A stretch of 64,000 nt of DNA, taken from an uncultured Halobacteriales archaeon (GTDB lineage Archaea > Halobacteriota > Halobacteria > Halobacteriales > Hikarchaeaceae). The position numbers and the translations under genes were made by a program. Positions 40,474-64,000 of this stretch are shown in pieces; the stretch's first letter is position 1; every line of letters begins with the position of its first letter. Location: the NCBI GenBank assembly GCA_964554565.1, contig CAZKPC010000003.1:1009-65008 (forward strand), written 5' to 3'. Below the pieces are notes generated by a model. That model was not told the origin of the DNA, ran no database searches, and saw only the letters and a list, made by a program, of their open reading frames with translations.

Positions 40474-42912
40474 CTACTCCGCCTCGTCCAAGGCGGCCTT
40501 GATCTTGTCCGCCGTGAAGGGGAGGCTGTGGATCCGGACGCCGACGGCATCGCGAATGGCGTTGCCGAGGGCCGGCGCGACGCCGTTCGTCGGCAGTTCC
40601 GCGATGGATTTGGCGCCGAACGGGCCGGTCGGCTCGTGGGTTTCGACCACGATGGTCTCCATCGGCGGGGTATCAGCCGTCGTCGGCATGCCGTACTGCC
40701 GGAAGCCCAGGACCTCCGGGTTCCCGTCGTCGTCGAAACTCAGCGTGCCGCTGGTGGCGTACTCGAGGCTCATGTGCTCGCCACCCTCGATCTGGCCTTC
40801 GACCAACGGCGGGTTGATCGCCACTCCACAGTCCGCCGCGAAGACCAGCTTGTTGATGTCGTACTCGCCGGTCTCCTCGTTCACCGTCACGTCGACGAAC
40901 TGCGCGCCGAACGGCGGGGGGCTCTCGTCGGTGCTGTGGTGGCTCGCGCCCATCACTTGCTCGCGCTCGTCGCCCCCGTAGATCGACTCCATGCCGATCT
41001 CCTCGAGGGTGACTTCCTCGCCGGTGACCTCGCTGTACACGACGCCCTCGCCGGTCTCGAGGTCCTCGGCCGGCTCGTCGAGCAGCTTCCCGGCCCAGTA
41101 GAGGAGCCGATCCTTCGCGTCGAGGGCGGTTTCCTTGACCGCGCGGCCCGAAATATAGGTCGTCGAGGAGGCGTAGGCGCCGTAATCGAACGGCGTTTCG
41201 TCGGTATCGGAGGACTTGACCACGATGTCCTCGGGGTCGCAGCCGAGCACCTCCGAGGCGATCTGACTGAACATCGTGTCGTTCCCCGACCCCGTGTCGA
41301 CGCCCCCGACCTGCAGGATGAACGAGCCGTCCTCGTTCATCTTGATGTGGGCCGCGCCGAGTTCGTCGCCCTGCACGCCGCTGCCCTGGGCGGTCAGCGC
41401 GAGGCCGATCCCGCGATGGAGGTGGGGCTCCTCGGGCTGTTCGACGTCTTCGTATCCGATGGCCTCGGCCCCGCGATCGATGCATTCCCCCATGCCACAG
41501 GACCGGATCCGGCGGGCGCCGTCGCCCTCGCCGAGGATGTCCGAGATCCAGTCGAGGTCGCCGACCTGGACGTGGTTCTTCCGCCGGAACTCGATCGGGT
41601 CCATGTCGAGCCGCCGGGCGACCTCGTCCATGTGGCACTCCACCGCGAAGTGGCCCTGGGGCGCGCCGTACCCGCGCTGGGCCGCCGCGATCGGCAGGTT
41701 CGTGTGGACGATGTCCGCCGTGAAGCGGACGTTCTCCACCCGGGGATAGATCGGGAGCGGCTTGGTCCCGACGTTCCCCGCCACCGTCATCCCGTGGGGG
41801 CCATAGGCGCCGGTGTTCGAGAGCGCGTAGAGGTCCATGGCCTGCAGCTCGCCGTCCTCCGACACCGCGGATTTCATCGTGACCGACATCGGGTGCCGGT
41901 TCCGCATGGCGTGGAACTCCTCCTTCCGGCTGACTTCGAGCTTGACCGGCTGCCCGGCCGCCAGATGGAGGGCGAACGTGATCGGCTCGATCACCATCGC
42001 CTGCTTGCCGCCGAAGCCGGCACCGATACGGGGTTTGGTGACCCGGATATCCCGCACCGGGATGTCGAAGAGGTGTGAGAGCTGCCGGCGGGTGTGGTTG
42101 GGGACCTGCGTGGAGGAGATGAAGACGTGCCGGTTGTCCTCGTCCGTGTAGGCGATCGTCGTGTGTGGTTCCGGGATACAGTGGTTCTGGTAGGGCGTCT
42201 CCCACTCGGTCTCGAGAGTCAGCTCGTCGTCCGCGGCATCCAGTGCCGATTCCACGTCGCCCAACTCGCCCTCGAAGTGGGACTCGCGGTTCCGTGTGTA
42301 GTCCGCTCCGGACTGCTTGTTCTCCACGTCGTCCGGTTCGAACAGCTGCGGGGCGTCCGGATCCATCGCCTCGTGGTAGTCGAGGACCGGCTCGAGCTCC
42401 TCGTATTCGACCGTGATCTTCCGGGCGGCCTTGTCCGCGATCGACTTGTTCTCCGCGGCCACCGCCGCGATCGGGTCGCCGACGAACCGCACGTGCTCCC
42501 GGAGCGTCTTCATGTCCCACGGGCTGGGTTCGGGATACGACTGACCGGCCGACGTGTAGACGCTATCGGGCACCTCGTCCGACCACGGCGTGATCACGGC
42601 GTGGACGCCGTCCATCGCCTCGGCCTCGCTCGTGTCGATCGACTTCACGTACCCGTGGGCGATGTCGCTGCGGATGACCTTCCCCTCGAGCAGCTCCGGG
42701 AAGTGGACGCGGAAGTCCGCGGTGAACTTCGCCTCGCCGGTGACGAGCTTGCGCCCGTCGTCCTTCTCGACGTCCTTGGTGATGTTCTCGCGGTCGCTGG
42801 CGGCCTTCCGGTTGCCCTCCGGCTCGTCCCATTCGATCGGGAACTTCTCGAGGGCCTCGTCCTGGCCGGGCAACACGTCGATCTCCGGCTCGGTGTCCTC
42901 GGGCTGGCTCAC
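40474..42912 (-). CDS. Molybdenum hydroxylase (xanthine dehydrogenase family) Mo-binding subunit, XdhD-like
   Basis: GQSYPEPSP, VRFVGD, STQVP, GAGFGGK, RGYGAPQ, GQIEGG, GPFGAKSIAE; GTG start with GGAGGT SD. Confidence 0.92.
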   Translation of the reverse strand: MSQPEDTEPEIDVLPGQDEALEKFPIEWDEPEGNRKAASDRENITKDVEKDDGRKLVTGEAKFTADFRVHFPELLEGKVIRSDIAHGYVKSIDTSEAEAMDGVHAVITPWSDEVPDSVYTSAGQSYPEPSPWDMKTLREHVRFVGDPIAAVAAENKSIADKAARKITVEYEELEPVLDYHEAMDPDAPQLFEPDDVENKQSGADYTRNRESHFEGELGDVESALDAADDELTLETEWETPYQNHCIPEPHTTIAYTDEDNRHVFISSTQVPNHTRRQLSHLFDIPVRDIRVTKPRIGAGFGGKQAMVIEPITFALHLAAGQPVKLEVSRKEEFHAMRNRHPMSVTMKSAVSEDGELQAMDLYALSNTGAYGPHGMTVAGNVGTKPLPIYPRVENVRFTADIVHTNLPIAAAQRGYGAPQGHFAVECHMDEVARRLDMDPIEFRRKNHVQVGDLDWISDILGEGDGARRIRSCGMGECIDRGAEAIGYEDVEQPEEPHLHRGIGLALTAQGSGVQGDELGAAHIKMNEDGSFILQVGGVDTGSGNDTMFSQIASEVLGCDPEDIVVKSSDTDETPFDYGAYASSTTYISGRAVKETALDAKDRLLYWAGKLLDEPAEDLETGEGVVYSEVTGEEVTLEEIGMESIYGGDEREQVMGASHHSTDESPPPFGAQFVDVTVNEETGEYDINKLVFAADCGVAINPPLVEGQIEGGEHMSLEYATSGTLSFDDDGNPEVLGFRQYGMPTTADTPPMETIVVETHEPTGPFGAKSIAELPTNGVAPALGNAIRDAVGVRIHSLPFTADKIKAALDEAE

Positions 42913-43439
42913 GCCCGTTCACCTCCGGACTCGCGGGATACGAGATCGAGCCGGGTGCCGCCGTCAGCCGCCATCGCGTCGGCCTGCATGCGGTCGGCCG
43001 AGTCGTGGACGGCCTCGAGGATCTTCTTGTACCCGGTGCACCGACACAAGTTATCCGAAAGCGCCTCACGGACCTCTGAATCCGACGGATCGGGGTTCTC
43101 CTCGAGCAGGGCTTTCGTGCTCATGATGAAGCCCGGCGTGCAGAACCCACATTGGAGCGCCGTCTGGTCCAGGAAGGCCTGCTGGATCGGGTGCAAGTCG
43201 TCCTGGGTACCCAACCCTTCGATGGTCTCGACGGACGCCCCCTCCACCCGATTCGCGGGCAGCACACAGGACTGGCGAGGTTCGCCGTCGACCTGCACCA
43301 TGCACATCCCACAAGCGCCGGTATCGCAGCCGCGCTTGGCACCGGTATACCCGTTGCGCCGAAGCACGTCGAGCAGCAGATCCGTCTTCGCCACCTCGAA
43401 GGTTTCCGGCTCGCCGTTGAGTTCAAACTGGAGTTCCAT
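42909..43439 (-). CDS. Molybdenum hydroxylase 2x[2Fe-2S] subunit
   Basis: GCDTGACGMC...SC, QCGFC, NLCRCTGY. Confidence 0.95.
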   Translation of the reverse strand: MELQFELNGEPETFEVAKTDLLLDVLRRNGYTGAKRGCDTGACGMCMVQVDGEPRQSCVLPANRVEGASVETIEGLGTQDDLHPIQQAFLDQTALQCGFCTPGFIMSTKALLEENPDPSDSEVREALSDNLCRCTGYKKILEAVHDSADRMQADAMAADGGTRLDLVSRESGGERA

Positions 43440-45184: not shown

Positions 45185-45556
45185 ATGACGGACCTGGGGG
45201 TCGTCCTCACGGGCGGGCCATTCGACAGCCAGCGGTGGCGCACGGCCTACGAGCTGGGCCGCGCGGCGCTGGACGCCGACCGACAGGTGAGCTACTTCCA
45301 TTACCTGGACGGCGTCCTCGTGCCGGTGCTGGACCAGCGCCTCCCGGACTGCAGCGACGCCAGCCTGTACGACGAGATGCCGACGGAGAAGTTCCAGCAG
45401 CTGATCGCGGACGGGGCCGAGGTCGTCTGCTGTGGGCTCTGTGTCGACGCCAGGGGGATCGAGGCGGCGACCGATTACCCCGCGGGCGTCGAGGTCGGGT
45501 TGTTGCCCGACCTGGCTGACCTGCTCGGGACGGCCGATCGGGTGGTATCACTATGA
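45185..45556 (+). CDS. DsrE/TusD-like sulfur(selenium)-relay protein
   Basis: T.GP, F.Y.DGV, CCGLC..ARG, L..L...ADRVV. Confidence 0.88.
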   Translation: MTDLGVVLTGGPFDSQRWRTAYELGRAALDADRQVSYFHYLDGVLVPVLDQRLPDCSDASLYDEMPTEKFQQLIADGAEVVCCGLCVDARGIEAATDYPAGVEVGLLPDLADLLGTADRVVSL

Positions 45557-45903
45557 AACGGGACGTCCTCGTCATGGTGACCCGGCCGCCGGGTCGCGTC
45601 CACGTCGCTGAGGGCCTCCGGGCAGCCCGCGGGGTGGCAGCCGGGTTCGATCGCCACGACGTCACCGTGTTGTTCGCGGAGGACGGCGTTCACAGCGCCA
45701 GAGCCGCGGTCGACCGCGACGCGCTCAACCTGCCCGATCACATCGCCGATTTGCGGGCCGAGGACGGCCGCATGGTCGCCGACGGCCGGGCCCTGCAGGA
45801 GCGGGCGATCGACCGGGAAGCGGTGGCCGACGACATCACCGTGCTGGACGGCGGGGAGACGACCGCGCTCGTCCGGCGGGCCGATCACACGCTCGATTTC
45901 TGA
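45553..45903 (+). CDS. DsrF/TusC-like protein
   Basis: PPG...EGLR, LF.EDGV, L.ER.I; ATGA overlap with dsrE. Confidence 0.82.
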   Translation: MKRDVLVMVTRPPGRVHVAEGLRAARGVAAGFDRHDVTVLFAEDGVHSARAAVDRDALNLPDHIADLRAEDGRMVADGRALQERAIDREAVADDITVLDGGETTALVRRADHTLDF

Positions 45904-45905
45904 CG

Positions 45906-46151
45906 ATGCTCTACCTCATCGACAAACCGTTGGCGGATCTCGGCCTCCGGGCGGCGAGTGATGACCCCGACGCCCGCGTGGCCCTCCTGCAGGACGGGGT
46001 CCTGCTCGACCCGGATCTTGACGTCCCCACCTTCGCCGTGCAGCGGGACGCCGCCGTCCGGGGGATCGATCTCCCCGAGGCCGTGGAACCGGTCTCCTAT
46101 GACCGACTCGTCGAACTGCTGTTCGAGCACGAGGTGGCCAGCTTCGTATGA
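45906..46151 (+). CDS. DsrH/TusB-like protein
   Basis: MLYLI, LLQDGV, D...RG, YD.LVEL. Confidence 0.85.
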   Translation: MLYLIDKPLADLGLRAASDDPDARVALLQDGVLLDPDLDVPTFAVQRDAAVRGIDLPEAVEPVSYDRLVELLFEHEVASFV

Positions 46152-47797
46152 CCCTGTTCGAGCGCGCTGACGAACTGGTCGACCGCGGCGAGCCGGCCGC
46201 CATGCTGACGGTCGTCGGCAAGGACGGGAGCGCGCCGCGGGAAGTCGGGACCCGGATGCTCGTGACGGCCCAGGACGAGTTCGGCACGATCGGCGGCGGC
46301 AGCGTGGAAGGCCTCGCCATCGAGGAGGCCCGCGACGTCCTCGAAGGGCAGGCCGAGCCGGGCGTGCGCAACTACGAGCTCCGACCGGGTGGGAACACCG
46401 GGATGGTCTGCGGGGGGTCGATGGACGTGTTCATCGACCGTCTGCGCGGGAAGCGACACGTGTATGTTGCGGGCGGCGGCCACATCGCCGCCGAGCTGGC
46501 CCCGCTGGCCGCCCGGATGGGATACGCGGTCACGTTGATCGACGACCGGGCGGAGTACGCCGCCGAGGCCCGCTTCCCCGAGGCCACCCGAGTCATCCAC
46601 GGCGACTACGGCGAGGCCCTGGCTGAGCTCCCGATCACGTCCGAGTCCGCCGTCGTCGTCGCGACCCGGAGCGGCACCTTCGATACCGCCGCCGTCGGCG
46701 CCGCGCTCGAAGGTGGCGCCGGCTACGTCGGGCTGGTCGCCAGCGACACCAAGGCCGACCGGGTACTGGACAACCTCGCCGAGGACGGCTTCGGCCGGGA
46801 CCGCCTGGTCGACGTCCGAGCGCCGGTCGGCCTGGACCTCGGCGGGGGCGGGCCCGAGGACGTGGCCCTCTCCGTCCTCGCCGAACTCCACGCTGACCGG
46901 CACGACGCGTCCGGGAGCCGGCTGACGCGGCTCGACCTCGACGAGCTCGTCGTGGTCCGGGGCGGCGGCGATCTCGCCAGCGGGGTCGTGTACCGGCTCC
47001 ACCAGGCGGGGTTCCCGGTCGCGGTCCTCGAGGTCGAGCAGCCGACGGCGGTCCGACGGGCGGTGGCGTTCGCCGAGGCGGTGTACGAGGACGAAGTGAC
47101 GGTCGAGGGCGTCGGGGCCCGACGTGCGGAGGACGTCGATGCGGCCGTGGAGATGCTCGAGGCCGGCGAGGTCCCGGTGCTCGTGGACCCGGAGGCCGCG
47201 GCAGTCGATGCCTTGGAGCCCGGCGTGCTGGTCGACGCGGTGATGGCCAAGGGTAAACGGGATACCGGCACCCGCCGTGAGCAGGCGGACGTGGTCATCG
47301 GGTTGGGGCCGGGATTCGAGGCCGTCGCGGACGAGCCGGGATCGGTGGGCGCCGGGGGTGATACCACGGCGGCCGAGGCCGCCGATGGCGGGCCGGTTCC
47401 GGTCGACGCCGTCGTTGAAACCGATCGCGGCCACGAACTCGGCCGGGTGTTCTACGAGGGCACGGCCAGCCCCTATGACGGGACGCCGGGCGAGCGAGCG
47501 GGCCACACGCTGGACCGCGTCCTGTACGCCGAATCCGCGGGCGAGTGGTCGCCGACGGTGGAGATCGGCGAGCTGGTCGAGACGGGCGACGTGGTCGGCC
47601 ACGTCGGCGACGATCCCGTCGCGGCCGAGATCGACGGGCTGGTCCGGGGACTCGTCCGCGAAGGGCTGCAGGTCGAGGCCGGCACGAAGCTCGGTGACAT
47701 CGACCCCCGTGGCGACGCCGTGGATCCGACGAAGGTCTCCGACAAGGCGCTCTCGCTGGGCGGCGGGGTCCTTGAGGCGGTGCTGCGCCTCCGGTAA
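46148..47797 (+). CDS. yqeB: XdhC-YqeB fusion (Mo-hydroxylase maturation / selenium-cofactor protein)
   Basis: N-half GSAPRE.G, GTIGGG, CGG, APVGLDLG; C-half VRGGGDLASG, RRAVAF, ETDRGH.LG, GDIDPR, SDKA..LGGGVLEA. Confidence 0.9.
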   Translation: MTLFERADELVDRGEPAAMLTVVGKDGSAPREVGTRMLVTAQDEFGTIGGGSVEGLAIEEARDVLEGQAEPGVRNYELRPGGNTGMVCGGSMDVFIDRLRGKRHVYVAGGGHIAAELAPLAARMGYAVTLIDDRAEYAAEARFPEATRVIHGDYGEALAELPITSESAVVVATRSGTFDTAAVGAALEGGAGYVGLVASDTKADRVLDNLAEDGFGRDRLVDVRAPVGLDLGGGGPEDVALSVLAELHADRHDASGSRLTRLDLDELVVVRGGGDLASGVVYRLHQAGFPVAVLEVEQPTAVRRAVAFAEAVYEDEVTVEGVGARRAEDVDAAVEMLEAGEVPVLVDPEAAAVDALEPGVLVDAVMAKGKRDTGTRREQADVVIGLGPGFEAVADEPGSVGAGGDTTAAEAADGGPVPVDAVVETDRGHELGRVFYEGTASPYDGTPGERAGHTLDRVLYAESAGEWSPTVEIGELVETGDVVGHVGDDPVAAEIDGLVRGLVREGLQVEAGTKLGDIDPRGDAVDPTKVSDKALSLGGGVLEAVLRLR

Positions 47798-47825
47798 CGA
47801 AGGGCTCGACGCGCCGGCCGGCCCA

Positions 47826-48869
47826 TCAATCCGGGCGCGGCGCCGTGCCCAGGGAAACTTGGTCGACCGCCGGCTCGGCCAGCCGAGCGCCGGCCCCCTC
47901 GGTCACGCGGCCGACCGCTCGATAGAAGACGTCCGCCTCATCCAGCGCCGCTTCGAGGGCCGCCGTTCGCTCATCCTCAACCGCCACGAGCAGCCCGCCG
48001 CTCGTTTCAGCACTCTCTCCGGCGACCAGTCCATAGCCGAACAGGTCTGAGAGCGACGGCGTGCCCTCGATGACCGGGAGCTCCGTGAGTTCGATGCCGA
48101 CGCCGCTGCGGGCGGCGATCGTGCTTGCCTCGCCGAGCAGGCCGAACCCGGTGACGTCGGTGGCGGCCGTGGCGAGCTCCCGGACGGCCAAGGCTGCTGC
48201 CCGGTTCGGGTGGACCATCCACCGGTACGCCTCCTGACCGACCGCCCCGATATCGGGATCGGTCGCGTCGGCGACGGTTTCGGCGAACTCGCCATCGCTG
48301 ACGCGGAGCGCTCCCATGGCGGGCTGCGTGCCCAACGGCTTGGTCAGGTAGAGGTGATCCCCCGGACCGGCACCGGTGGTCGTCAGCAGCCGGTCCCGGG
48401 GAGCCGTGGCGGTGATCGCCCCGCCCGCCAGCGGCCACGGGTTAAGGATCGTGTGCCCCCCGGCGATGACGCCGTCCATCCCTCTGAGGGCCGTCAGCAT
48501 CCCCGTGAGGATCTCGGCGGCCACCGTGGTCAGATCCCGGGGGAGGCCCAAGACCGCCAGACAGGCCAAGTCGTCCACGGCGCCCGTCGCGAACGCGTCG
48601 CTGGCGGCGTTGACGGCGGCCACGCGGCCGAAGTCGGCCGGGTCATCGACCACGGGGGTAAACACGTCGACGGTCGACACCAGGGCCCGCGAATCGCCGA
48701 GCGGTTGGGCGGCCGCGTCCTCCCCGACGCCGAACAACAACCCGGGCTGCTCCCCATCGACCCCAGCCTCGGCGAGCAGCGACTCGAGATCGCCCCGACC
48801 GACCTTGCACGAACAGCCGTGGAGTTCGGCGTGGTCGGTGAGCGCCGGCTCCGGCCCGTCGTCCGCCAT
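47826..48869 (-). CDS. selD: Selenophosphate synthetase (Cys form)
   Basis: HGCSCK, EDAA, TVD.FTP.VDDP..FG, A.NA.SD, GGHT, LTKPLG, TDVTGFGLLG, ETSGGLL. Confidence 0.95.
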   Translation of the reverse strand: MADDGPEPALTDHAELHGCSCKVGRGDLESLLAEAGVDGEQPGLLFGVGEDAAAQPLGDSRALVSTVDVFTPVVDDPADFGRVAAVNAASDAFATGAVDDLACLAVLGLPRDLTTVAAEILTGMLTALRGMDGVIAGGHTILNPWPLAGGAITATAPRDRLLTTTGAGPGDHLYLTKPLGTQPAMGALRVSDGEFAETVADATDPDIGAVGQEAYRWMVHPNRAAALAVRELATAATDVTGFGLLGEASTIAARSGVGIELTELPVIEGTPSLSDLFGYGLVAGESAETSGGLLVAVEDERTAALEAALDEADVFYRAVGRVTEGAGARLAEPAVDQVSLGTAPRPD

Positions 48870-48870
48870 G

Positions 48871-49116
48871 CTAGGCGTCCGAAAGCGTCGCCTGCTCGGT
48901 TACCGTGATGTGCAGCTCGAAGGCGCCGTCCCCGTGATTGGGACCGTCAGTGACCTCGTAGCCGTGGCGGTCACAGGTCCGCCGGAGGTTCCGTTCGGCC
49001 GGCGGGTAATCGCCCCGAACCAGCAGCTCGTCCCCGGGGCTCAACTCCGCCAGCCGATCCCGGACGACGAGCGCCGGCCGCGGACAGACCTCCCCCGTGA
49101 CGTCCACGTGCTCCAT
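48871..49116 (-). CDS. tusA: TusA/SirA sulfur(selenium) carrier
   Basis: DVTGEVCPRP (CPxP) and L..GD.L.V..D; ends 1 nt before the selD start. Confidence 0.9.
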   Translation of the reverse strand: MEHVDVTGEVCPRPALVVRDRLAELSPGDELLVRGDYPPAERNLRRTCDRHGYEVTDGPNHGDGAFELHITVTEQATLSDA

Positions 49117-49199
49117 GGCCGTCAGTACTGGATGGGAGCCCATAACGGTAGCGTCGACCGCCGCGGAACGCTCAAATCGCGTCGGGGGCTTGACCCAGC

Positions 49200-49970
49200 A
49201 TGGAGCTCGCCGACCAGCTCGAGGTGGGGGATCGGGCGCTGGTGGCGTTCGTCGGGGCCGGCGGCAAGAAGACGGCGATGGACCAACTCGTCGAGGAGGG
49301 GACCGACCGCGGACTGGCCGTCGGCTATACCACGACGACCCACGTCCCGCCGCCCGACCTCCCGCTCGCGTTGTCCGACCCAGAAACCCTCGAACGAGGG
49401 CTCGAGGAGCACGAGCCGCCGGTGGCATTCGCCCGGGAGGAGGTCGAGCAGCCGGAACGCGCCGACCGCAAGCTCCGTGGGTTCGAGCCATCGGTCGTCG
49501 ATTGGACCTATCGCACGCGGCGATTCGACTGGCTGCTGGTGAAAGCAGACGGGGCCCGACGGCGGGGGTTCAAAGCGCCGGGGCCCGACGAACCGGCGCT
49601 GCCGCTGGCCGCGACCCACGTGGTGCCGGTCGTCAGCGTACAGGTCGTCGGAAAGCCGCTGGCGCCGGAACACGTCCATCGCGTGGACCAGGTCGCGGCC
49701 ATCACGGGACTCGAGCCGGGCGATCCGATCGACGCCGCCGCCGTTGGCACTGTCCTCGGGAGCCCCGAGGGCGGCCTGAAGGGCGTCCCGGAGACGGCGA
49801 CGGCCACCTATCTGGTGAACCAGGCCGACACGCCGGCGCTTGCCGGCACCGCCCGGACAGTGCTCGAGACCGCCTTCGAGGTGGCCGGGCGCCCAGTCCG
49901 GGGCGCCGTGAGTTCCTTCGAGGCCGATCGGCTGGACGTTTTCGAGCCCGGAGGTCGCCGGGGAGCCTGA
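49200..49970 (+). CDS. yqeC: Selenium cofactor biosynthesis protein YqeC
   Basis: VGAGGKK, TTTTH, KADGARRR.FKAP..DEP, NQAD. Confidence 0.9.
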   Translation: MELADQLEVGDRALVAFVGAGGKKTAMDQLVEEGTDRGLAVGYTTTTHVPPPDLPLALSDPETLERGLEEHEPPVAFAREEVEQPERADRKLRGFEPSVVDWTYRTRRFDWLLVKADGARRRGFKAPGPDEPALPLAATHVVPVVSVQVVGKPLAPEHVHRVDQVAAITGLEPGDPIDAAAVGTVLGSPEGGLKGVPETATATYLVNQADTPALAGTARTVLETAFEVAGRPVRGAVSSFEADRLDVFEPGGRRGA

Positions 49971-58231: not shown

Positions 58232-58343
58232 GCCCGGTCGCAACTCCGGGGCATTCTTCTCCGTTTTCGGTCCCCCTGCAGAGCGTCGCTGAAGCGCTGG
58301 CGGAAGGTATATGCGAGCCAGGGTAGAATCTCAGCCAGATTCC

Positions 58344-59579
58344 ATGGAGCTCGAGCGCCATCGCCCGCGTATCGACGAGTGGGTCGACGAACACCGCGAG
58401 GACTGCATCGCCTTCCTGCAGGACCTGATCGCCATTCCCAGCGCGACGACAGTCGGCGAGGACGAAGCCGAGATCGCCGACCGGGTCGTCGAGGAACTTG
58501 AGGCGCTCGACTACGACGAGGTCCGGGTCGACGGGATCGGGAACGTTCATGGCGTGATCGAGGGGGCCCGCGACGACGAGGGCGCCGTCATGCTCAACTC
58601 CCACATCGACACGGTGGGGTTCGGCGACCGGGAGCAATGGGACCACGACCCCTACGGCGGCGAGATCGAGGACGGGCAGCTCTACGGGCTCGGGAGCGCG
58701 GACATGCTCTGTGCGATGGCGTCGATGGTTTACGGCGGGGCGGCGCTGATCGACCTCGATATCACCCCTGAACACGACGTTTACGTGACCGGCGAAGTGT
58801 TCGAGGAGGTCCACGAGGGCCACGCGATGCGGTACGCCGTCGAGGAAGCGGACCTCGACCTGTCGGCCGTCGTCATCGGGGAGGCGACCGAGATGGACGT
58901 CAAGCGGGGTCATCGGGGTCGGTGTGAGCTGAAGATCGAGATCGAGGGCGCGTCCTGTCATGCCAGCGCGCCGGAGCGGGGCATCAACCCGCTGTATCAC
59001 GCCGCCGCGATGCTCGAGCGGATCGAGGAGCTGAACGAGGAAACGGCGGACGACGACTTCCTGGGATCGGGGACGATCGCGGGGACGAACCTCGAGGTCG
59101 ACACGCCGTCCAACAACGCGGTCCCGGCCCACGCCACGCTCTATGTCGATCGACGGTTGACGGTTGGCGAGGACGAGGCGACCGTCCATGCCGAACTCGA
59201 GGACGCGATCAGCGCCGCCGAAGCGGTCTACGGGGATGACGTAGCGGCGGAGGTCGAGACCCTTTCCTTCGATCGGCCGTCCTACACCGGCTACCAGCAG
59301 GAGACTCCGAAGTACTACCCGAGTTGGGTCCTCGATGAGGACCACCCCCTCGTCCAGCAGACCTCGGAAGTGGCCTCGACGATGCTGGACTCGGACCATG
59401 AGATTACCAAGTGGACCTTCTCCACCAGCGGGAACTACACGATGGGCGTCGCGGGGATCCCGACCATCGGCTTCGGTCCGTCCCGCGAGGAGTGGGCGCA
59501 CATGGCCAACGAACGCGTCGCGGTCGAGGACGTCGTCGATGCGATCGGCGTTTACGCCGGGCTGGCCGCCGAACTATAG
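58344..59579 (+). CDS. ygeY: YgeY-family M20 metallo-hydrolase (N-carbamoyl/ureido hydrolase)
   Basis: HIDTVG.G...W..DPY, EE, RG.RGR, SCH.SAPERG.N, D.FLG.GT, DRRLT.GE, DRPS.TG, KWTFST.G, IGFGP. Confidence 0.88.
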   Translation: MELERHRPRIDEWVDEHREDCIAFLQDLIAIPSATTVGEDEAEIADRVVEELEALDYDEVRVDGIGNVHGVIEGARDDEGAVMLNSHIDTVGFGDREQWDHDPYGGEIEDGQLYGLGSADMLCAMASMVYGGAALIDLDITPEHDVYVTGEVFEEVHEGHAMRYAVEEADLDLSAVVIGEATEMDVKRGHRGRCELKIEIEGASCHASAPERGINPLYHAAAMLERIEELNEETADDDFLGSGTIAGTNLEVDTPSNNAVPAHATLYVDRRLTVGEDEATVHAELEDAISAAEAVYGDDVAAEVETLSFDRPSYTGYQQETPKYYPSWVLDEDHPLVQQTSEVASTMLDSDHEITKWTFSTSGNYTMGVAGIPTIGFGPSREEWAHMANERVAVEDVVDAIGVYAGLAAEL

Positions 59580-59603: not shown

Positions 59604-60656
59604 TCAGGAGTTTTCGACGACCCGCGTCCCCGCCTCGCCTTCGAGGGCCGCCTGAGCCTCGTCGAGCGACGTGATCAGCGCGACTCGGTCGCGCCGGGAT
59701 TCGCCCTCGACGAACCGACACGCCGCCTGCACCTTCGGCCCCATGCTGCCCGCCGGGAACTGGCCGGCGTCGAGCTTCGCTCGCAAGTCCGCCGCCGCGA
59801 TCTCCTCGATCATGGCCTCGTCCGGGCCCCCGAAGTCCCGGTAAACCCCGTCCACGTCGGTCAGGATGAGGAGGTAGTCCGCGTTCAGAGTGTGGGCGAT
59901 CTGCGCGGACAGGAGGTCCTTGTCGACCACGGCATCGAGGCCCTCGATCTCGCCGGCCCGCCTGATGACGGGCACGCCCCCGCCGCCGCCACAGATGACG
60001 AGGTCCCGCTGGTCGATCAGACGCTTGACCGGCACCTCCTCGACAATGCCGAGGGGCTCTGGGGACGGCACCACTCGACGATACGGGGTCTCCGGGTCGT
60101 CGCGGACCGCTTTGACGGTCGCGCCCTGAGAGCGGAGCTCCTCGGCCCGCTGTTCATCGAGATAGGGGCCCACCGGCTTCGTCGGGTCGTCGAAGGCCGG
60201 ATCCTCGGGATCGACCATGGTCTGGGTGAGGATGCAGGCGACCGGCACGTGCTTCCACCGGCGTTCCAGGTGCATCTGCATCTGCTGGGCGAGCATGTAG
60301 CCGATCTGGCCCTGGCTCATGGCCCCACAGACCTCGAGGGGCTGGGCCGGCGGCTCGCCTTGCTCCTGCTGGTTCAACAACGCGCCGACCTGGGGCCCGT
60401 TGCCGTGGGTCAAGACGACCTTGTAGCCGGCTTTCATCACGTCGACGATCTGTTGGGACGTCCGGCTGACCGCATCGAGCTGGGATTCGTACGTGCCGTC
60501 CGAATCCGCCGGGCTGATCGCGTTGCCGCCGAGGGCGATCATCGTCAGCGGCTTCTGTCGCGGGGTGCCCCAGAACGCCGGCGGCTCGACATCGAGGTCG
60601 AAAGCCGGCACCTCGTCCGGATGGAATTCGGGCGGTTCCTCCTCGGGGGCGTCCAT
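59604..60656 (-). CDS. arcC: Carbamate kinase
   Basis: ALGGNA, THGNGPQVG, PTKPVG, RRVVPSPEP, GGGG.PV, VDKD, GSMGPK. Confidence 0.96.
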   Translation of the reverse strand: MDAPEEEPPEFHPDEVPAFDLDVEPPAFWGTPRQKPLTMIALGGNAISPADSDGTYESQLDAVSRTSQQIVDVMKAGYKVVLTHGNGPQVGALLNQQEQGEPPAQPLEVCGAMSQGQIGYMLAQQMQMHLERRWKHVPVACILTQTMVDPEDPAFDDPTKPVGPYLDEQRAEELRSQGATVKAVRDDPETPYRRVVPSPEPLGIVEEVPVKRLIDQRDLVICGGGGGVPVIRRAGEIEGLDAVVDKDLLSAQIAHTLNADYLLILTDVDGVYRDFGGPDEAMIEEIAAADLRAKLDAGQFPAGSMGPKVQAACRFVEGESRRDRVALITSLDEAQAALEGEAGTRVVENS

Positions 60657-60663
60657 CAGCGGG

Positions 60664-61680
60664 TTACCAGCCGCGCCCGCCCATCGTCAGCGCCATCAGC
60701 GCCTTCTGGGCGTGCATGCGGTTCTCCGCCTGGTCGTAGATCACGCTCTGCGGGCCGTCCATCACCGCGTCCGTGGCCTCGTACCCCCGCTTCGCCGGCA
60801 GGCAGTGCATGTAGTTCGCGTGGGGCTTCGCGTTCGCCAGCATCTCCTCGTCGCAGATCCAGTCCTGGTTGGCGTCGTGGATCTCCTTCTCGGCCTCCCG
60901 ACCGCGTTCGTGCACTTTGGTGGAAACCCAGTGTTTCGGGTAGACGACGTCCGCGCCATCGAAGGCCCGGGCCATGTCGTGCTCGATCGTGAAGTCGACG
61001 CCCGCCTCCTCGGCGTTCTCCTCGGCCTGCTCGACGATCCGGGGGTCCAGGTCGAGACCCTCGGGGTGGGCCAGCGTGACGTTCGCCCCCATCTTCGTGA
61101 ACCCCAGGATCGAGGAGTGGGGGACCGAGACCGGGCGCCGGATCTCCGGCGCGTAGGCGTAGGAGATGACGAAGTTCTGGTCCTCGATGCGGCCCTGTTG
61201 CTCGCGTACCGTCTGGAGGTCGGCCAGGGTCTGACACGGGTGGTAGGTGTCACACTGCATGTTGTAGACCGGGACGTCGCAGCCGGCCTGGTATTCCCGG
61301 ACGATCTCCGTCCCTCGTGGGTACTCGAAGTCGACGGCGGCGCCGAGGACCCGCACGGCGAACCCGTGGCCGTAGCGGGAGAGCACCTTGGCCGTCTCCC
61401 GGGCGCTCTCGCCGTGTTCGAGCTGGAGCTGGTCGGGCGCCATGATATGCGGGTAACCGCCCAGCTGGTTGATGCCCGCCTCGAACGAATTGCGGGTCCG
61501 CGTACTGGTGTTGTAGAAGAGCATGAAGAGCGACTGGCCCGTCAGCGCGTCGTAGTGGGCGAGCTCGCCGCGGGCGAACTCCGCCTTGAGCTGATCGGCC
61601 ACGTCGAGGACCGACGTGAGCTCCTCCTTCGTCCATTCCTGGACCGTCACCATGTCCTTGCCGCGAAGTGAGGTTTGCAT
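60664..61680 (-). CDS. ygeW: YgeW-like carbamoyltransferase
   Basis: STRTR, NMQCD.YHPCQ, SYAYAP...PVSVP, VYPKHW, MHCLP; lacks the OTC SMG loop; GGAGGT SD. Confidence 0.75.
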   Translation of the reverse strand: MQTSLRGKDMVTVQEWTKEELTSVLDVADQLKAEFARGELAHYDALTGQSLFMLFYNTSTRTRNSFEAGINQLGGYPHIMAPDQLQLEHGESARETAKVLSRYGHGFAVRVLGAAVDFEYPRGTEIVREYQAGCDVPVYNMQCDTYHPCQTLADLQTVREQQGRIEDQNFVISYAYAPEIRRPVSVPHSSILGFTKMGANVTLAHPEGLDLDPRIVEQAEENAEEAGVDFTIEHDMARAFDGADVVYPKHWVSTKVHERGREAEKEIHDANQDWICDEEMLANAKPHANYMHCLPAKRGYEATDAVMDGPQSVIYDQAENRMHAQKALMALTMGGRGW

Positions 61681-61840: not shown

Positions 61841-62860
61841 ATGAGCAGTGACACTGAGCGGGTCGGGCTGTATATGCAGGACAAGCACCCCATCCGCGAG
61901 AACATGGAGTACGTGAAATACGCCGAGTCGCAGGGGTTCGACGAGGTCTGGCAGGCGGAGTCCCGCCTGGCACGGGACGCGATCACGCCCTGTGCGGCCT
62001 ACGCCGCGGTGACCGACGAGATCAAAGTCGGGACCGGTGTGATCAACAACTGGACCCGGAACGCCGCGCTGATCGCCCAGACGATGTCCACGATGGAGGA
62101 GCTGGCCGGGCCGAACCGGATCCTCTGTGGCATCGGCGCCTGGTGGGAACCGATCGCCTCGAAGGTCGGGGTCAACCGCGAACGGCCGCTGCGCGCGATG
62201 CGGGAGACGGTGGAGGTCGTGAAGCAGCTGCTCGACATGGAGAACGTGACCTATGACGGCGACTTCGTCAACGTCGAGGACATCGAGCTGGACGTCGTCC
62301 ACGGGGATACCGGGCCCCGGACGGTCCCGGTCTACGTCGGCGGGACCGGGTTCACCATGCTCGAGCTCACCGGCGAGTTCGCCGACGGCGCCCTCCTGAA
62401 CTACCTCGTCAGCCCGGAGTACAACGAGAAGGCGCTGGAGGCCCTGGAGACGGGGGCCGAACGGGCCGGTCGCACCCTCGAGGACATTGACCGGCCTCAG
62501 CTCGTCGTCTGTTCGATGGATCACGACGCCGACAAGGCGCTCGACAACGCCCGGGAGCTCATCACGCAGTACCTCGGCCAGCAGCCCCACATCATGAAGG
62601 CCTCCGGCGTGAGTCAGGACCTCATCGACGACGTCGGCGAGGCGATCGGCGGGTGGCCGGCCGGCGAGGACGACATCCAGAAGGGAATGGACCTCATCCC
62701 CGACGAGGTCGTCCGCAAGCTCACGGCCTCCGGGACGCCCGAGCAATGCCGCGAGAAGGTCCGTGAATACTACGAAACCGGCTGCCAGTGCCCGATCCTC
62801 TACCCGCTCGGCGATGACGTCGAGCTCATGATCGACGAGTTCGCCGACGGCTACCTGTAA
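61841..62860 (+). CDS. Mer-like luciferase-family (LLM) oxidoreductase, probably F420-dependent
   Basis: [31 protein letters not shown]...GEFADG, GTPE. Confidence 0.85.
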
Positions 62861-62913: not shown

Positions 62914-63951
62914 ATGACTAGTCCGACCTGGGACAAGAGCCGCACTGCCAGCGGCGACATCTTCGCCGCCATCGGCGAGACGCCCCTGCTGGAGATCGAC
63001 ACCGATTCCGACGCTGACGTCTACGGGAAACTGGAGTTTCTGAACCCGAGCGGCTCCATCAAGGACCGCATCTACCGCGCGATGATCACCGCCGCCATCG
63101 AGCGCGGCGACCTCGAACCCGGAATGGAGATCCTGGAGTGCTCCACCGGCAATGCCGGCATCGCGTGCACGTTCGTCGGGAGCCAGCTCGGCTACGACGT
63201 GACGATCGTGATGCCCGAGGGCATGAGCGAGGAGCGCAAGAAGGTCATCCGCGCCTACGGCGGCGAGTTGATCGAAACGCCGGGCGGTGAAAGCGACGTC
63301 GACCTCTCGATGGAACGGGTCGAAGAGAAGATCGAGGAAGAGCCCGGGCAGTACTGGTTCCCGAACCAGTTCGCGAACCCCGACAACCCGCGGGCCCACG
63401 CGGAGACGACGGGCCCGGAGATCCTCGAACAGCTCGGCGGCGCACCTGACGCGTTCGTGGCGGGGCAAGGGACCGGCGGGACGCTCACTGGTGTCGGCCG
63501 GACGCTGCGGGAGGAGCGCTCGGACGTCCAGCTGTTCGCCCTCGAGCCCGCCGAGGCGCCGATCCTCTCGGCGCGCGAGTGGGGCAGCCACGAGATCGAG
63601 GGGATCGGCGACGGCTTCGTCCCCCAGAACCTCGACCCCGAGCTGATGGACGGCGTGGTCACGGTGACCTCGGAGGACGCCATCGACCGCTCCCGCTGGC
63701 TCGCCGACGAGGAGGGGGTCTTCTGTGGCATCTCCTCGGGCGCGAACATCGAGGGCGCCGTGAAGGTCGCCGAGGCCCAGGGACTGGACTCGATCGCGAC
63801 CATCATCTGCGATACCGGCATGCGCTACTTCTCCACGAAGCTGTTCGAGGACGAATACGAGATCGACGTCCCCGACCGCGATCACCCGCTCGACGACCGG
63901 TCGATCCGCGTCCTCGAGGAGTACCAGGACACCTGGACGATCCTCGACTAA
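62914..63951 (+). CDS. Cysteine-synthase-family (fold type II) PLP enzyme
   Basis: KLEFLNPSGSIKDR, STGNAG, NQF, GTGGT, IEGIG, GISSGA. Confidence 0.9.
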   Translation: MTSPTWDKSRTASGDIFAAIGETPLLEIDTDSDADVYGKLEFLNPSGSIKDRIYRAMITAAIERGDLEPGMEILECSTGNAGIACTFVGSQLGYDVTIVMPEGMSEERKKVIRAYGGELIETPGGESDVDLSMERVEEKIEEEPGQYWFPNQFANPDNPRAHAETTGPEILEQLGGAPDAFVAGQGTGGTLTGVGRTLREERSDVQLFALEPAEAPILSAREWGSHEIEGIGDGFVPQNLDPELMDGVVTVTSEDAIDRSRWLADEEGVFCGISSGANIEGAVKVAEAQGLDSIATIICDTGMRYFSTKLFEDEYEIDVPDRDHPLDDRSIRVLEEYQDTWTILD

Positions 63952-64000
63952 GGTCCCTCGGACGCCGGGGGCTCAATCCGCCGCGCCGCCGTACCGCTCG

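Follow-up and report, generated by a model that had tools for sequence, protein, structure and literature searches.

A divergent cysteine synthase-like enzyme of archaeal and bacterial purine clusters as a candidate for the diaminopropionate step of reductive urate degradation

The gene at 62914..63951 (+ strand) of the window, the whole 64,000-nucleotide stretch of DNA analyzed here, encodes a 345-aa PLP fold-type II enzyme with the cysteine-synthase fold, hereafter CysK*, which is neither DpaL/YgeX nor a housekeeping CysK. CysK* is the short form of an uncharacterized subfamily and would represent a variant of a known pathway step. We consider it quite probable that CysK* takes diaminopropionate (DAP) or albizziin as its substrate and closes the pathway, whatever the exact reaction. 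As to its chemistry, our leading account, held tentatively and at somewhat less than even confidence, is that CysK* frees the β-amino group of DAP and adds water to yield serine and ammonia, with the neighboring threonine synthase-like protein ThrC* or SHMT finishing the conversion.

The CysK* open reading frame has an ATG start and a GC3 of 0.92, and follows, as the original prediction had it, an LLM gene on the same strand, starting 53 bp 3′ of the stop codon of that gene. Profile searches identified the LLM product (61841..62860, +) as a Mer-like reductase, probably F420-dependent and likely a substitute for YgfK, and revealed a divergent carbamoyltransferase that may have a YgeW-like role (60664..61680, −), the ureido hydrolase YgeY (58311..59579, +; TIGR03526 and NF009555 above cut-off), a carbamate kinase (59604..60656, −; TIGR00746 above cut-off), a selenium-molybdenum cofactor block comprising DsrE/F/H, an XdhC-YqeB fusion, SelD, TusA and YqeC (45185..49970, no strand assigned), and the large and 2Fe-2S subunits of a molybdenum hydroxylase (40474..43439, −), for which the island holds no FAD subunit gene. 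Further genes of the window encode an NCS2 permease, an adenine deaminase, an amidohydrolase and a BMP-type ABC importer; an SsnA-like amidohydrolase gene follows ThrC* outside the window (contig 3, 66309-67607, +), and hydantoinase-like genes lie on a separate contig (C14). The island matches the reductive urate (2,8-dioxopurine) pathway in its F420-type variant. Two reports of 2025 worked out this pathway in gut bacteria, where YgeX is the last enzyme (PMC12507026; bioRxiv 10.1101/2025.04.24.650524), YgeX converting DAP to pyruvate and the F420-type LLM variant being noted in Chloroflexota (PMC12507026). CysK* is encoded together with ygeY, carbamoyltransferase, carbamate kinase, ssnA and xdh, as DpaL/YgeX is. 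The absence of ygeX/dpaL from the window, claimed earlier, extends to the 7 kb of contig beyond it and to the host genome, which is 83% complete and has Halobacteriales as its close relatives; the best DpaL-profile score in that genome was 86.5 bits against a cut-off of 276.

CysK* was assigned to the PALP family by profile search, with cysteine synthases as the top profiles, slightly under their cut-offs. It scored 333 bits on TIGR01139, a close miss (cut-off 350.95), 200.9 bits on the SbnA profile TIGR03945 (cut-off 349.95) and 18.4 bits on the DpaL profile NF006058 (cut-off 276). Its nearest PDB sequences are OASS enzymes (276 bits), which are also the top fold matches of its predicted model (pLDDT 93.8; TM 0.81-0.85 over the query), and fold searches with models of the short form and of the long form described below returned cysteine-synthase-family structures only. 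CysK* relatives carry the database label cysteine synthase A, and the ESM Atlas clusters retrieved with the short form are named 'putative cysteine synthase' only. The score of 333 bits, the database name and the retention of the PLP lysine, Asn80, Gln152-Phe153 and Ser274 are what would be expected of an ordinary second cysteine synthase whose place in the cluster is fortuitous or serves to provide sulfur. We nevertheless regard this explanation as extremely improbable: the host genome already encodes a canonical CysK (EPTSGNTG) on another contig, along with MccA-like and CysM-like paralogues and a canonical ThrC; four active-site elements of CysK* are invariantly altered; the protein falls in a separate clade; and the purine context is common to archaea and several bacterial phyla.

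The CysK active site comprises 69-TSGNT-73, Met120, 143-QF-144, 175-GVGT-178, 228-GIGA-231 and Ser272, as given in the available text of PMC9547175. CysK* retains the PLP-binding lysine K50 (K50-DRIY, 63061..63075, +), which aligns with CysK K42 and is present in 96/96 aligned sequences, as well as Asn80, Q152-F153 and S274. The four altered elements, all encoded on the + strand, are the substrate loop, the Met120 site, the phosphate loop and the Gln-GIGA segment. The substrate loop indeed reads ECSTGNAG, as predicted (within LECSTGNAGI; E75-G82, 63136..63159), with S77-T78-G-N-A81 where CysK has TSGNT. At the Met120 site (by alignment with E. coli CysK) there is an acidic loop with a one-residue insertion, E126-S-D-V129 (63289..63300), found in 96/96 sequences, and in the phosphate loop GQGTGGT (63463..63483) Q185 replaces the Val of CysK GVGT in 96/96 short forms. 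In HEIEGIGDG (63589..63615), E229 and D233 replace the Gln and Ala231 of CysK, turning Gln-GIGA into Glu-GIGD. Residues S77, T78, E126, S127, D128, V129, Q185, E229 and D233 are invariant in 96/96 aligned CysK* sequences, and the subfamily signature can be written as STGN, GxES[DN]V, Q185 and HxIEGIGD. A conserved C-terminal extension with RDHPLD (63877..63894, +) is missing in CysK, and an RxHxL-like motif occurs in 96/120 long forms. Thus CysK* resembles CysK/OASS-A (PDB 2egu, 9jxu, 8srt, 2q3d) in fold, PLP lysine, Asn, Gln-Phe, GxGGT loop and pyridine Ser, and departs from it in four pocket elements, the C-terminal extension, a catabolic gene context and its separate clade.

Since STGN is found in 121/121 close homologues of CysK* and TSGNT in 0/121, the ECSTGNAG loop is not a private change of this protein. 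Among 150 library representatives, TSGNTG occurs in 98 and STGNAG in only 5, all of which are pieces of the CysK* subfamily; ES[DN]V occurs in 7, likewise all pieces of the subfamily, and the GIGD motif is also present in 9 of the other 143.

The subfamily was sampled through 121 close homologues and through 80 loci in genomes; its hosts in this sample are haloarchaea, Caldarchaeum-type and other archaea, Blastocatellia, Methylomirabilota and Dehalococcoidia. In phylogenetic trees the short forms formed a single clade, with support of 99 in a quick tree and 99/85 in a careful tree from which 33 of 83 rows were left out, including 8 distant outgroups and one long-branched relative. This clade was set apart from CysK-A, MccA, SbnA/Cds1-like, CysM and CBS references. 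A CysK-A clade joining E. coli and haloarchaeal CysK (support 95/80, the bootstrap being not fully settled) left out CysK*, so that the phylogenetic check called for by the original prediction placed CysK* outside CysK-A in both trees. Among functionally related enzymes, SbnA (DAP biosynthesis) and DcsD (O-ureidoserine synthase) share the CysK fold and make or break β-C-N/C-O bonds on DAP-related alanine derivatives; both are biosynthetic, whereas CysK* has a catabolic context, belongs to a clade separate from SbnA and has no SbnB among its conserved neighbors. YgeX/DpaL likewise shares PLP fold type II with CysK*, the equivalent slot in xdh-ssnA-hyuA-ygeW-ygeY clusters and, putatively, the substrate DAP; it differs in that CysK* is no orthologue, lacks the Asp of the TDGNH motif, is usually paired with ThrC* and may yield serine.

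A second version of the enzyme accompanies ThrC* elsewhere. A CysK-fold neighbor was present in 23 of 40 metagenome ThrC* loci longer than 9 kb and was nearly always a long form of 450-490 aa, 26-36% identical to CysK*. The long form carries STGN in 120/120, GxES[DN]V in 120/120 and HxI[EQ]GIGD in 117/120 homologues, and its profile gave a mean of 146 bits with 28 short forms versus 99 bits with 84 other close relatives. Monophyly of short and long forms was absent from the quick tree with its distant outgroups and was recovered in the careful tree without strong support (69/90); judged from these sequence comparisons, a common origin of the two forms is likely. No DpaL-like open reading frame was found in the CysK* loci or the ThrC* loci. 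Minimal operons of YgeY, regulator, long form and ThrC* without XDH occur (L163, L168); in gut-metagenome operons (L163:7378-8034, L168, L169, L170) the only genes are those for YgeY, a YheO-like PAS/HTH regulator, the long form and ThrC*. A long-form homologue on a plasmid of the legume symbiont Rhizobium sp. NXC24 (L258:8935-10434) is accompanied by an M20 peptidase and an amino-acid ABC importer and by no purine genes, and could serve in the metabolism of a plant non-protein amino acid.

The original prediction had overlooked that a second fold-type II enzyme, ThrC*, and the SsnA-like gene follow directly after CysK*. ThrC* is a Zn-ribbon threonine-synthase-like PLP enzyme of 414 aa encoded on the − strand, of which only the 3′ end lies in the window (63973..64000, with the stop at 63973; the whole gene spans contig 3 64981-66225). 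Its orthologues are labeled 'thrC: threonine synthase' by NCBI. ThrC* reads NAAINPFQ where the canonical ThrC of the same genome has NSVNPFR, and the Arg of canonical ThrC, which we take to be the phosphate-binding residue, is missing in 26/26 aligned ThrC* sequences. ThrC* lies at most 10 kb from CysK* in 45/81 loci, often as the next gene, and the neighbors shared by such loci are XDH, SsnA-like, carbamoyltransferase, carbamate kinase and LLM genes. In several Caldarchaeum-type loci (L016, L047, L048, L051, L054, L056, L066, L069) there are two carbamoyltransferases and a carbamate kinase, and a V4R gene stands between CysK* and ThrC* in all of these except L016. All 13 of 13 haloarchaeal genome records with CysK* have ThrC* at an identity of at least 62%. 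It is also present, at an identity of at least 66%, in 11/54 CysK*-negative haloarchaeal genomes, mostly with no purine genes within 1.5 kb, which makes it look like an enzyme of more general use. At L205:9011-10393, L206:7637-8998 and L208:8691-10061, the gene next to the long form encodes a second, divergent subtype of Zn-ribbon ThrC-like protein that shares about 30% identity with ThrC*; these clusters contain two carbamoyltransferases as well as a YgfK-like gene.

Co-occurrence was examined in 281 Chloroflexota genomes, which are related and mostly metagenome assemblies, so that the counts overstate independence: the short form was found in 15, the long form in 41 and both in none, ThrC* in 39 (at E of at most 1e-140, excluding 5 weaker matches), YgeY in 40 and DpaL in 11. 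Either form was present in 38/40 YgeY genomes versus 18/241 others, and several of those 18 have, instead of YgeY, two carbamoyltransferases together with a divergent ThrC-like gene beside the long form. ThrC* occurred in 33 of the 40 YgeY genomes and DpaL in 4, all four of which also have the CysK*-type/ThrC* pair; at the 2 DpaL loci inspected, DpaL was located away from purine genes. DpaL was likewise found in 0/50 CysK* genomes drawn from the 80 loci. Genomes that have ThrC* and YgeY but lack the long form were predicted to contain the short form, and 4/6 did; the exceptions, G453 and G582, have YgeY and ThrC* and neither form. Seven YgeY genomes contain the short form without a DpaL or ThrC* orthologue; four of them have an amidohydrolase-XDH-CysK*-carbamoyltransferase operon and a fifth has a similar one. 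A search of five ThrC*-less YgeY genomes with the second, divergent ThrC-like query, run without a positive control, gave no match.

In haloarchaea the distribution is different. CysK* was found in 2/300 haloarchaeal genomes and, among 15 haloarchaeal plasmid records with YqeB, LLM and ThrC* (plasmids only, two species being represented twice), in 2/15, the long form occurring in 0/15. Being rare in haloarchaea and missing from 13/15 plasmid clusters, CysK* appears dispensable there. On H. marismortui pNG700 (L256), a full cluster has ThrC* and a Rid gene after yqeC-mocA and no CysK*; for this species, the available text of PMC2276186 gives no YgeX and makes no reference to a cysteine synthase. 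In Halorussus and Haladaptatus, CysK* is part of a yqeC-mocA-moeA block 20-30 kb from ThrC*. Aerobic haloarchaea (L256, L092-L098) have a hydrolytic cluster in which a D-aminoacylase-like gene and a Zn hydrolase replace the carbamoyltransferase and kinase, and the NpdG-like and CofC genes present in some of these clusters suggest that F420 is used. Methylomirabilota and two Chloroflexota show a second context, in which CysK* is accompanied by a two-subunit CoA transferase and a different LLM and no ureido enzymes are in view. Loci of this second context (L053, L061, L064, L067, L070-L074, L077, L079, L233-L235) often also contain genes for XDH subunits, a Liv-type ABC importer, a 2OG-Fe(II) oxygenase, LamB/isochorismatase, a TPP enzyme or a DHDPS-like protein.

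For haloarchaea, these data rule out CysK* as the only substitute for YgeX, ThrC* being the constant member there, and ThrC* as the sole substitute everywhere is weakened by the seven YgeY genomes that lack it. CysK* is not an exclusive alternative to Rid either, two CysK* loci also carrying a Rid gene. The original proposal of a YgeX substitute thus survives in part: CysK* lies outside CysK-A, DpaL is absent and either form is present in 38/40 YgeY genomes, but with ThrC* adjoining, CysK* is not the sole candidate. The accompanying proposal that CysK* performs the terminal step to pyruvate fares similarly, in that CysK* tracks the DAP-producing step, but the step may belong to ThrC* (15/15 versus 2/15 plasmids), and CysK* itself may yield serine.

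The proposed conversion of DAP to serine by CysK* is suggested by the rebuilt pocket and by a characterized enzyme of the same fold. Judged by sequence equivalence, E126, D128, E229 and D233 would place four acids around the part of the CysK pocket that takes the β-substituent and bisulfide, an arrangement that would suit a protonated β-amino group. Fn1055 of F. nucleatum (PDB 5b53, 5b55), a cysteine hydroxyl-lyase, is a CysK-fold enzyme that converts cysteine to serine and H2S by β-replacement, with Asp232 as a key residue critical for cysteine specificity (available text of PMC12940168). It shares with CysK* the fold and, going by an indirect mapping, may share an Asp at the GIG-x position; it differs in its substrate, cysteine, and in having Thr73-Ser74 against Ser77-Thr78 of CysK*. 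We know of no purine context for Fn1055. Fn1055 ranks 8th of 103 PDB sequences against the long-form profile; the top 60 PDB sequences matched by the short form do not include it. The long-form fold search lists Fn1055 D232N. Searched with three long-form sequences, this variant falls short of the wild-type score by 2.2, 2.3 and 3.2 bits, a drop that would follow from Asp232 being aligned with an Asp of the query; the matched ranges would put Asp232 at the Asp of GIGD if the deposited chain bears a four-residue tag. By this indirect comparison D233 may well be the equivalent of Fn1055 Asp232, which reportedly has a role in water activation.

We therefore envisage, as a working scheme, that the cluster would make DAP, by analogy with the E. 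coli/Clostridium pathway; that E126, D128, E229 and D233 would bind and protonate its β-amino group; and that D233 would activate water, as Asp232 may do in Fn1055, for addition to the bound aminoacrylate, giving serine and ammonia. Serine would then be deaminated to pyruvate by ThrC*, or be used by SHMT/FolD/FTHFS or general metabolism, such that CysK* and ThrC* together would achieve the overall conversion carried out by YgeX, with serine as a point of divergence. Where CysK* is missing, ThrC* alone would eliminate DAP directly; in the seven YgeY genomes without DpaL or ThrC*, CysK* alone would dispose of DAP, serine needing no special partner. SHMT is found beside the ThrC*/long-form pair in 5/80 ThrC* loci and near 2/80 CysK* loci. 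In L123:10001-21242, L126, L140, L152 and L171 the SHMT gene either separates ThrC* from the long form or adjoins the two; L123 further encodes FTHFS and FolD, a D-aminoacylase-like protein and a TRAP transporter, and no XDH is seen there. Against the scheme, SHMT is missing from most loci, most haloarchaeal clusters have ThrC* and no CysK*, G453 and G582 have neither form, CysK* lies far from ThrC* in Halorussus and Haladaptatus and without ureido enzymes in its second context, and the loop is STGN and not the Thr73-Ser74 of Fn1055. To our knowledge, CysK-fold enzymes are L-specific, with which the reported (R)/D intermediates sit badly, and the conversion of DAP to serine would be new chemistry for DAP and is a reaction not known for the CysK fold.

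All of the co-occurrence data fit equally well if CysK* is a direct DAP ammonia-lyase yielding pyruvate and two NH3, with CysK* and ThrC* as overlapping lyases, for instance one per enantiomer, that jointly equal a bispecific YgeX. Either enzyme is dispensable under this explanation, as seen in the seven CysK*-only genomes and in the ThrC*-only G453, G582 and 13 plasmid records. The CysK fold normally retains the aminoacrylate until a nucleophile arrives, which counts against a direct lyase; the Asp of the E. coli YgeX loop TTTDGNHG, which has a catalytic role, is missing in CysK* (STGNA); the SHMT neighbors would not be accounted for; and Rid genes are rare near CysK* (1/80 loci). The STGN loop is shared with E. 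coli D-serine dehydratase (VGSTGNLG), which favors a lyase, but also with canonical ThrC, so that the motif is not decisive for D-specificity or the enantiomer. Thr78 is invariant in both short (96/96) and long forms (19/19) and may occupy the re-face position of Ser84 of serine racemase (PMC6424897, in the part available; a role of the equivalent position in other fold-type II enzymes is described there and in the available part of PMC3344862). YgeX is reported to be equally active on both DAP isomers (PMC12507026, available text), the pathway intermediates are given as (R), i.e. D (bioRxiv 10.1101/2025.04.24.650524, available text), and a commentary, as far as available, lists the stereochemistry of the pathway as an open question (PMC12990295). 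On balance we judge the direct lyase unlikely, while giving it serious weight. The same invariant hydroxyl at the re-face position, the (R) intermediates and the frequent pairing with ThrC* would also suit a DAP or albizziin racemase feeding an L-specific ThrC*, but the seven genomes with CysK* and neither ThrC* nor DpaL speak against it, making a racemase highly improbable. We know of no racemase in the CysK subfamily.

Elimination of urea from albizziin (3-ureido-alanine), bypassing YgeY, would be compatible with the frequent location of CysK* next to a carbamoyltransferase (in Caldarchaeum-type loci, and in XDH-CysK*-OTC operons with YgeY elsewhere), with the free α-amino group of albizziin and with the presence of an O-ureidoserine synthase among the close solved relatives of CysK*. 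However, the CysK*-type enzyme accompanies YgeY (38/40) rather than replacing it, and CysK* is kept in loci with two carbamoyltransferases, where such a reaction would waste the ATP-yielding ureido group; we consider it very unlikely.

The original prediction had offered, as an alternative, that CysK* supplies sulfur or selenium to the TusA-DsrEFH-SelD relay, the island having no cysteine desulfurase. None was indeed found in the island, and none clearly in the 83%-complete genome, where the best PF00266 match reached 80 bits. An Fn1055-like Asp would fit the release of sulfide or selenide from Cys/Sec (cysteine to serine and H2S) for SelD/TusA/DsrEFH and the molybdenum hydroxylase; several haloarchaeal loci have CysK* flanked by yqeC and mocA/moeA, many others have it beside XDH genes, and the E. 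faecalis cluster has a selenocysteine-lyase-like gene (PMC2276186, available text). This proposal is weakened by the distribution: YqeB was found in only 14/52 CysK* genome records (two records being one genome), leaving 38/52 without it, 13/15 haloarchaeal YqeB plasmids have no CysK*, and long-form operons with YgeY and ThrC* have no XDH nearby (L123, L126, L128, L163, L168). A role in sulfur or selenium supply is thus improbable.

In the open-access literature searched, we found no paper on CysK* or the CysK*/ThrC* pair in purine clusters. In the available text of PMC12507026, YgeX in gene neighborhoods was scored only as the whole PF00291 family, and the other 2025 study scored it by BLAST to YgeX. 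True YgeX is mostly missing from the lineages sampled here (4/40 YgeY genomes), with proteins annotated as 'cysteine synthase' or 'threonine synthase' in its place. CysK* and the long form may constitute a new and very widespread class of enzyme, a diaminopropionate hydrolase (DAP + H2O → serine + NH3), a proposal we put forward with considerable reserve. If true, the pathway would end differently from that of E. coli in most environmental anaerobes and archaea and in some gut bacteria: purine carbon would enter metabolism as serine, from which SHMT, FolD and FTHFS could form glycine and formate and gain additional ATP, while ThrC* would offer an optional route to pyruvate. Naming the reaction would complete the pathway for archaea and many environmental bacteria and would correct many annotations.
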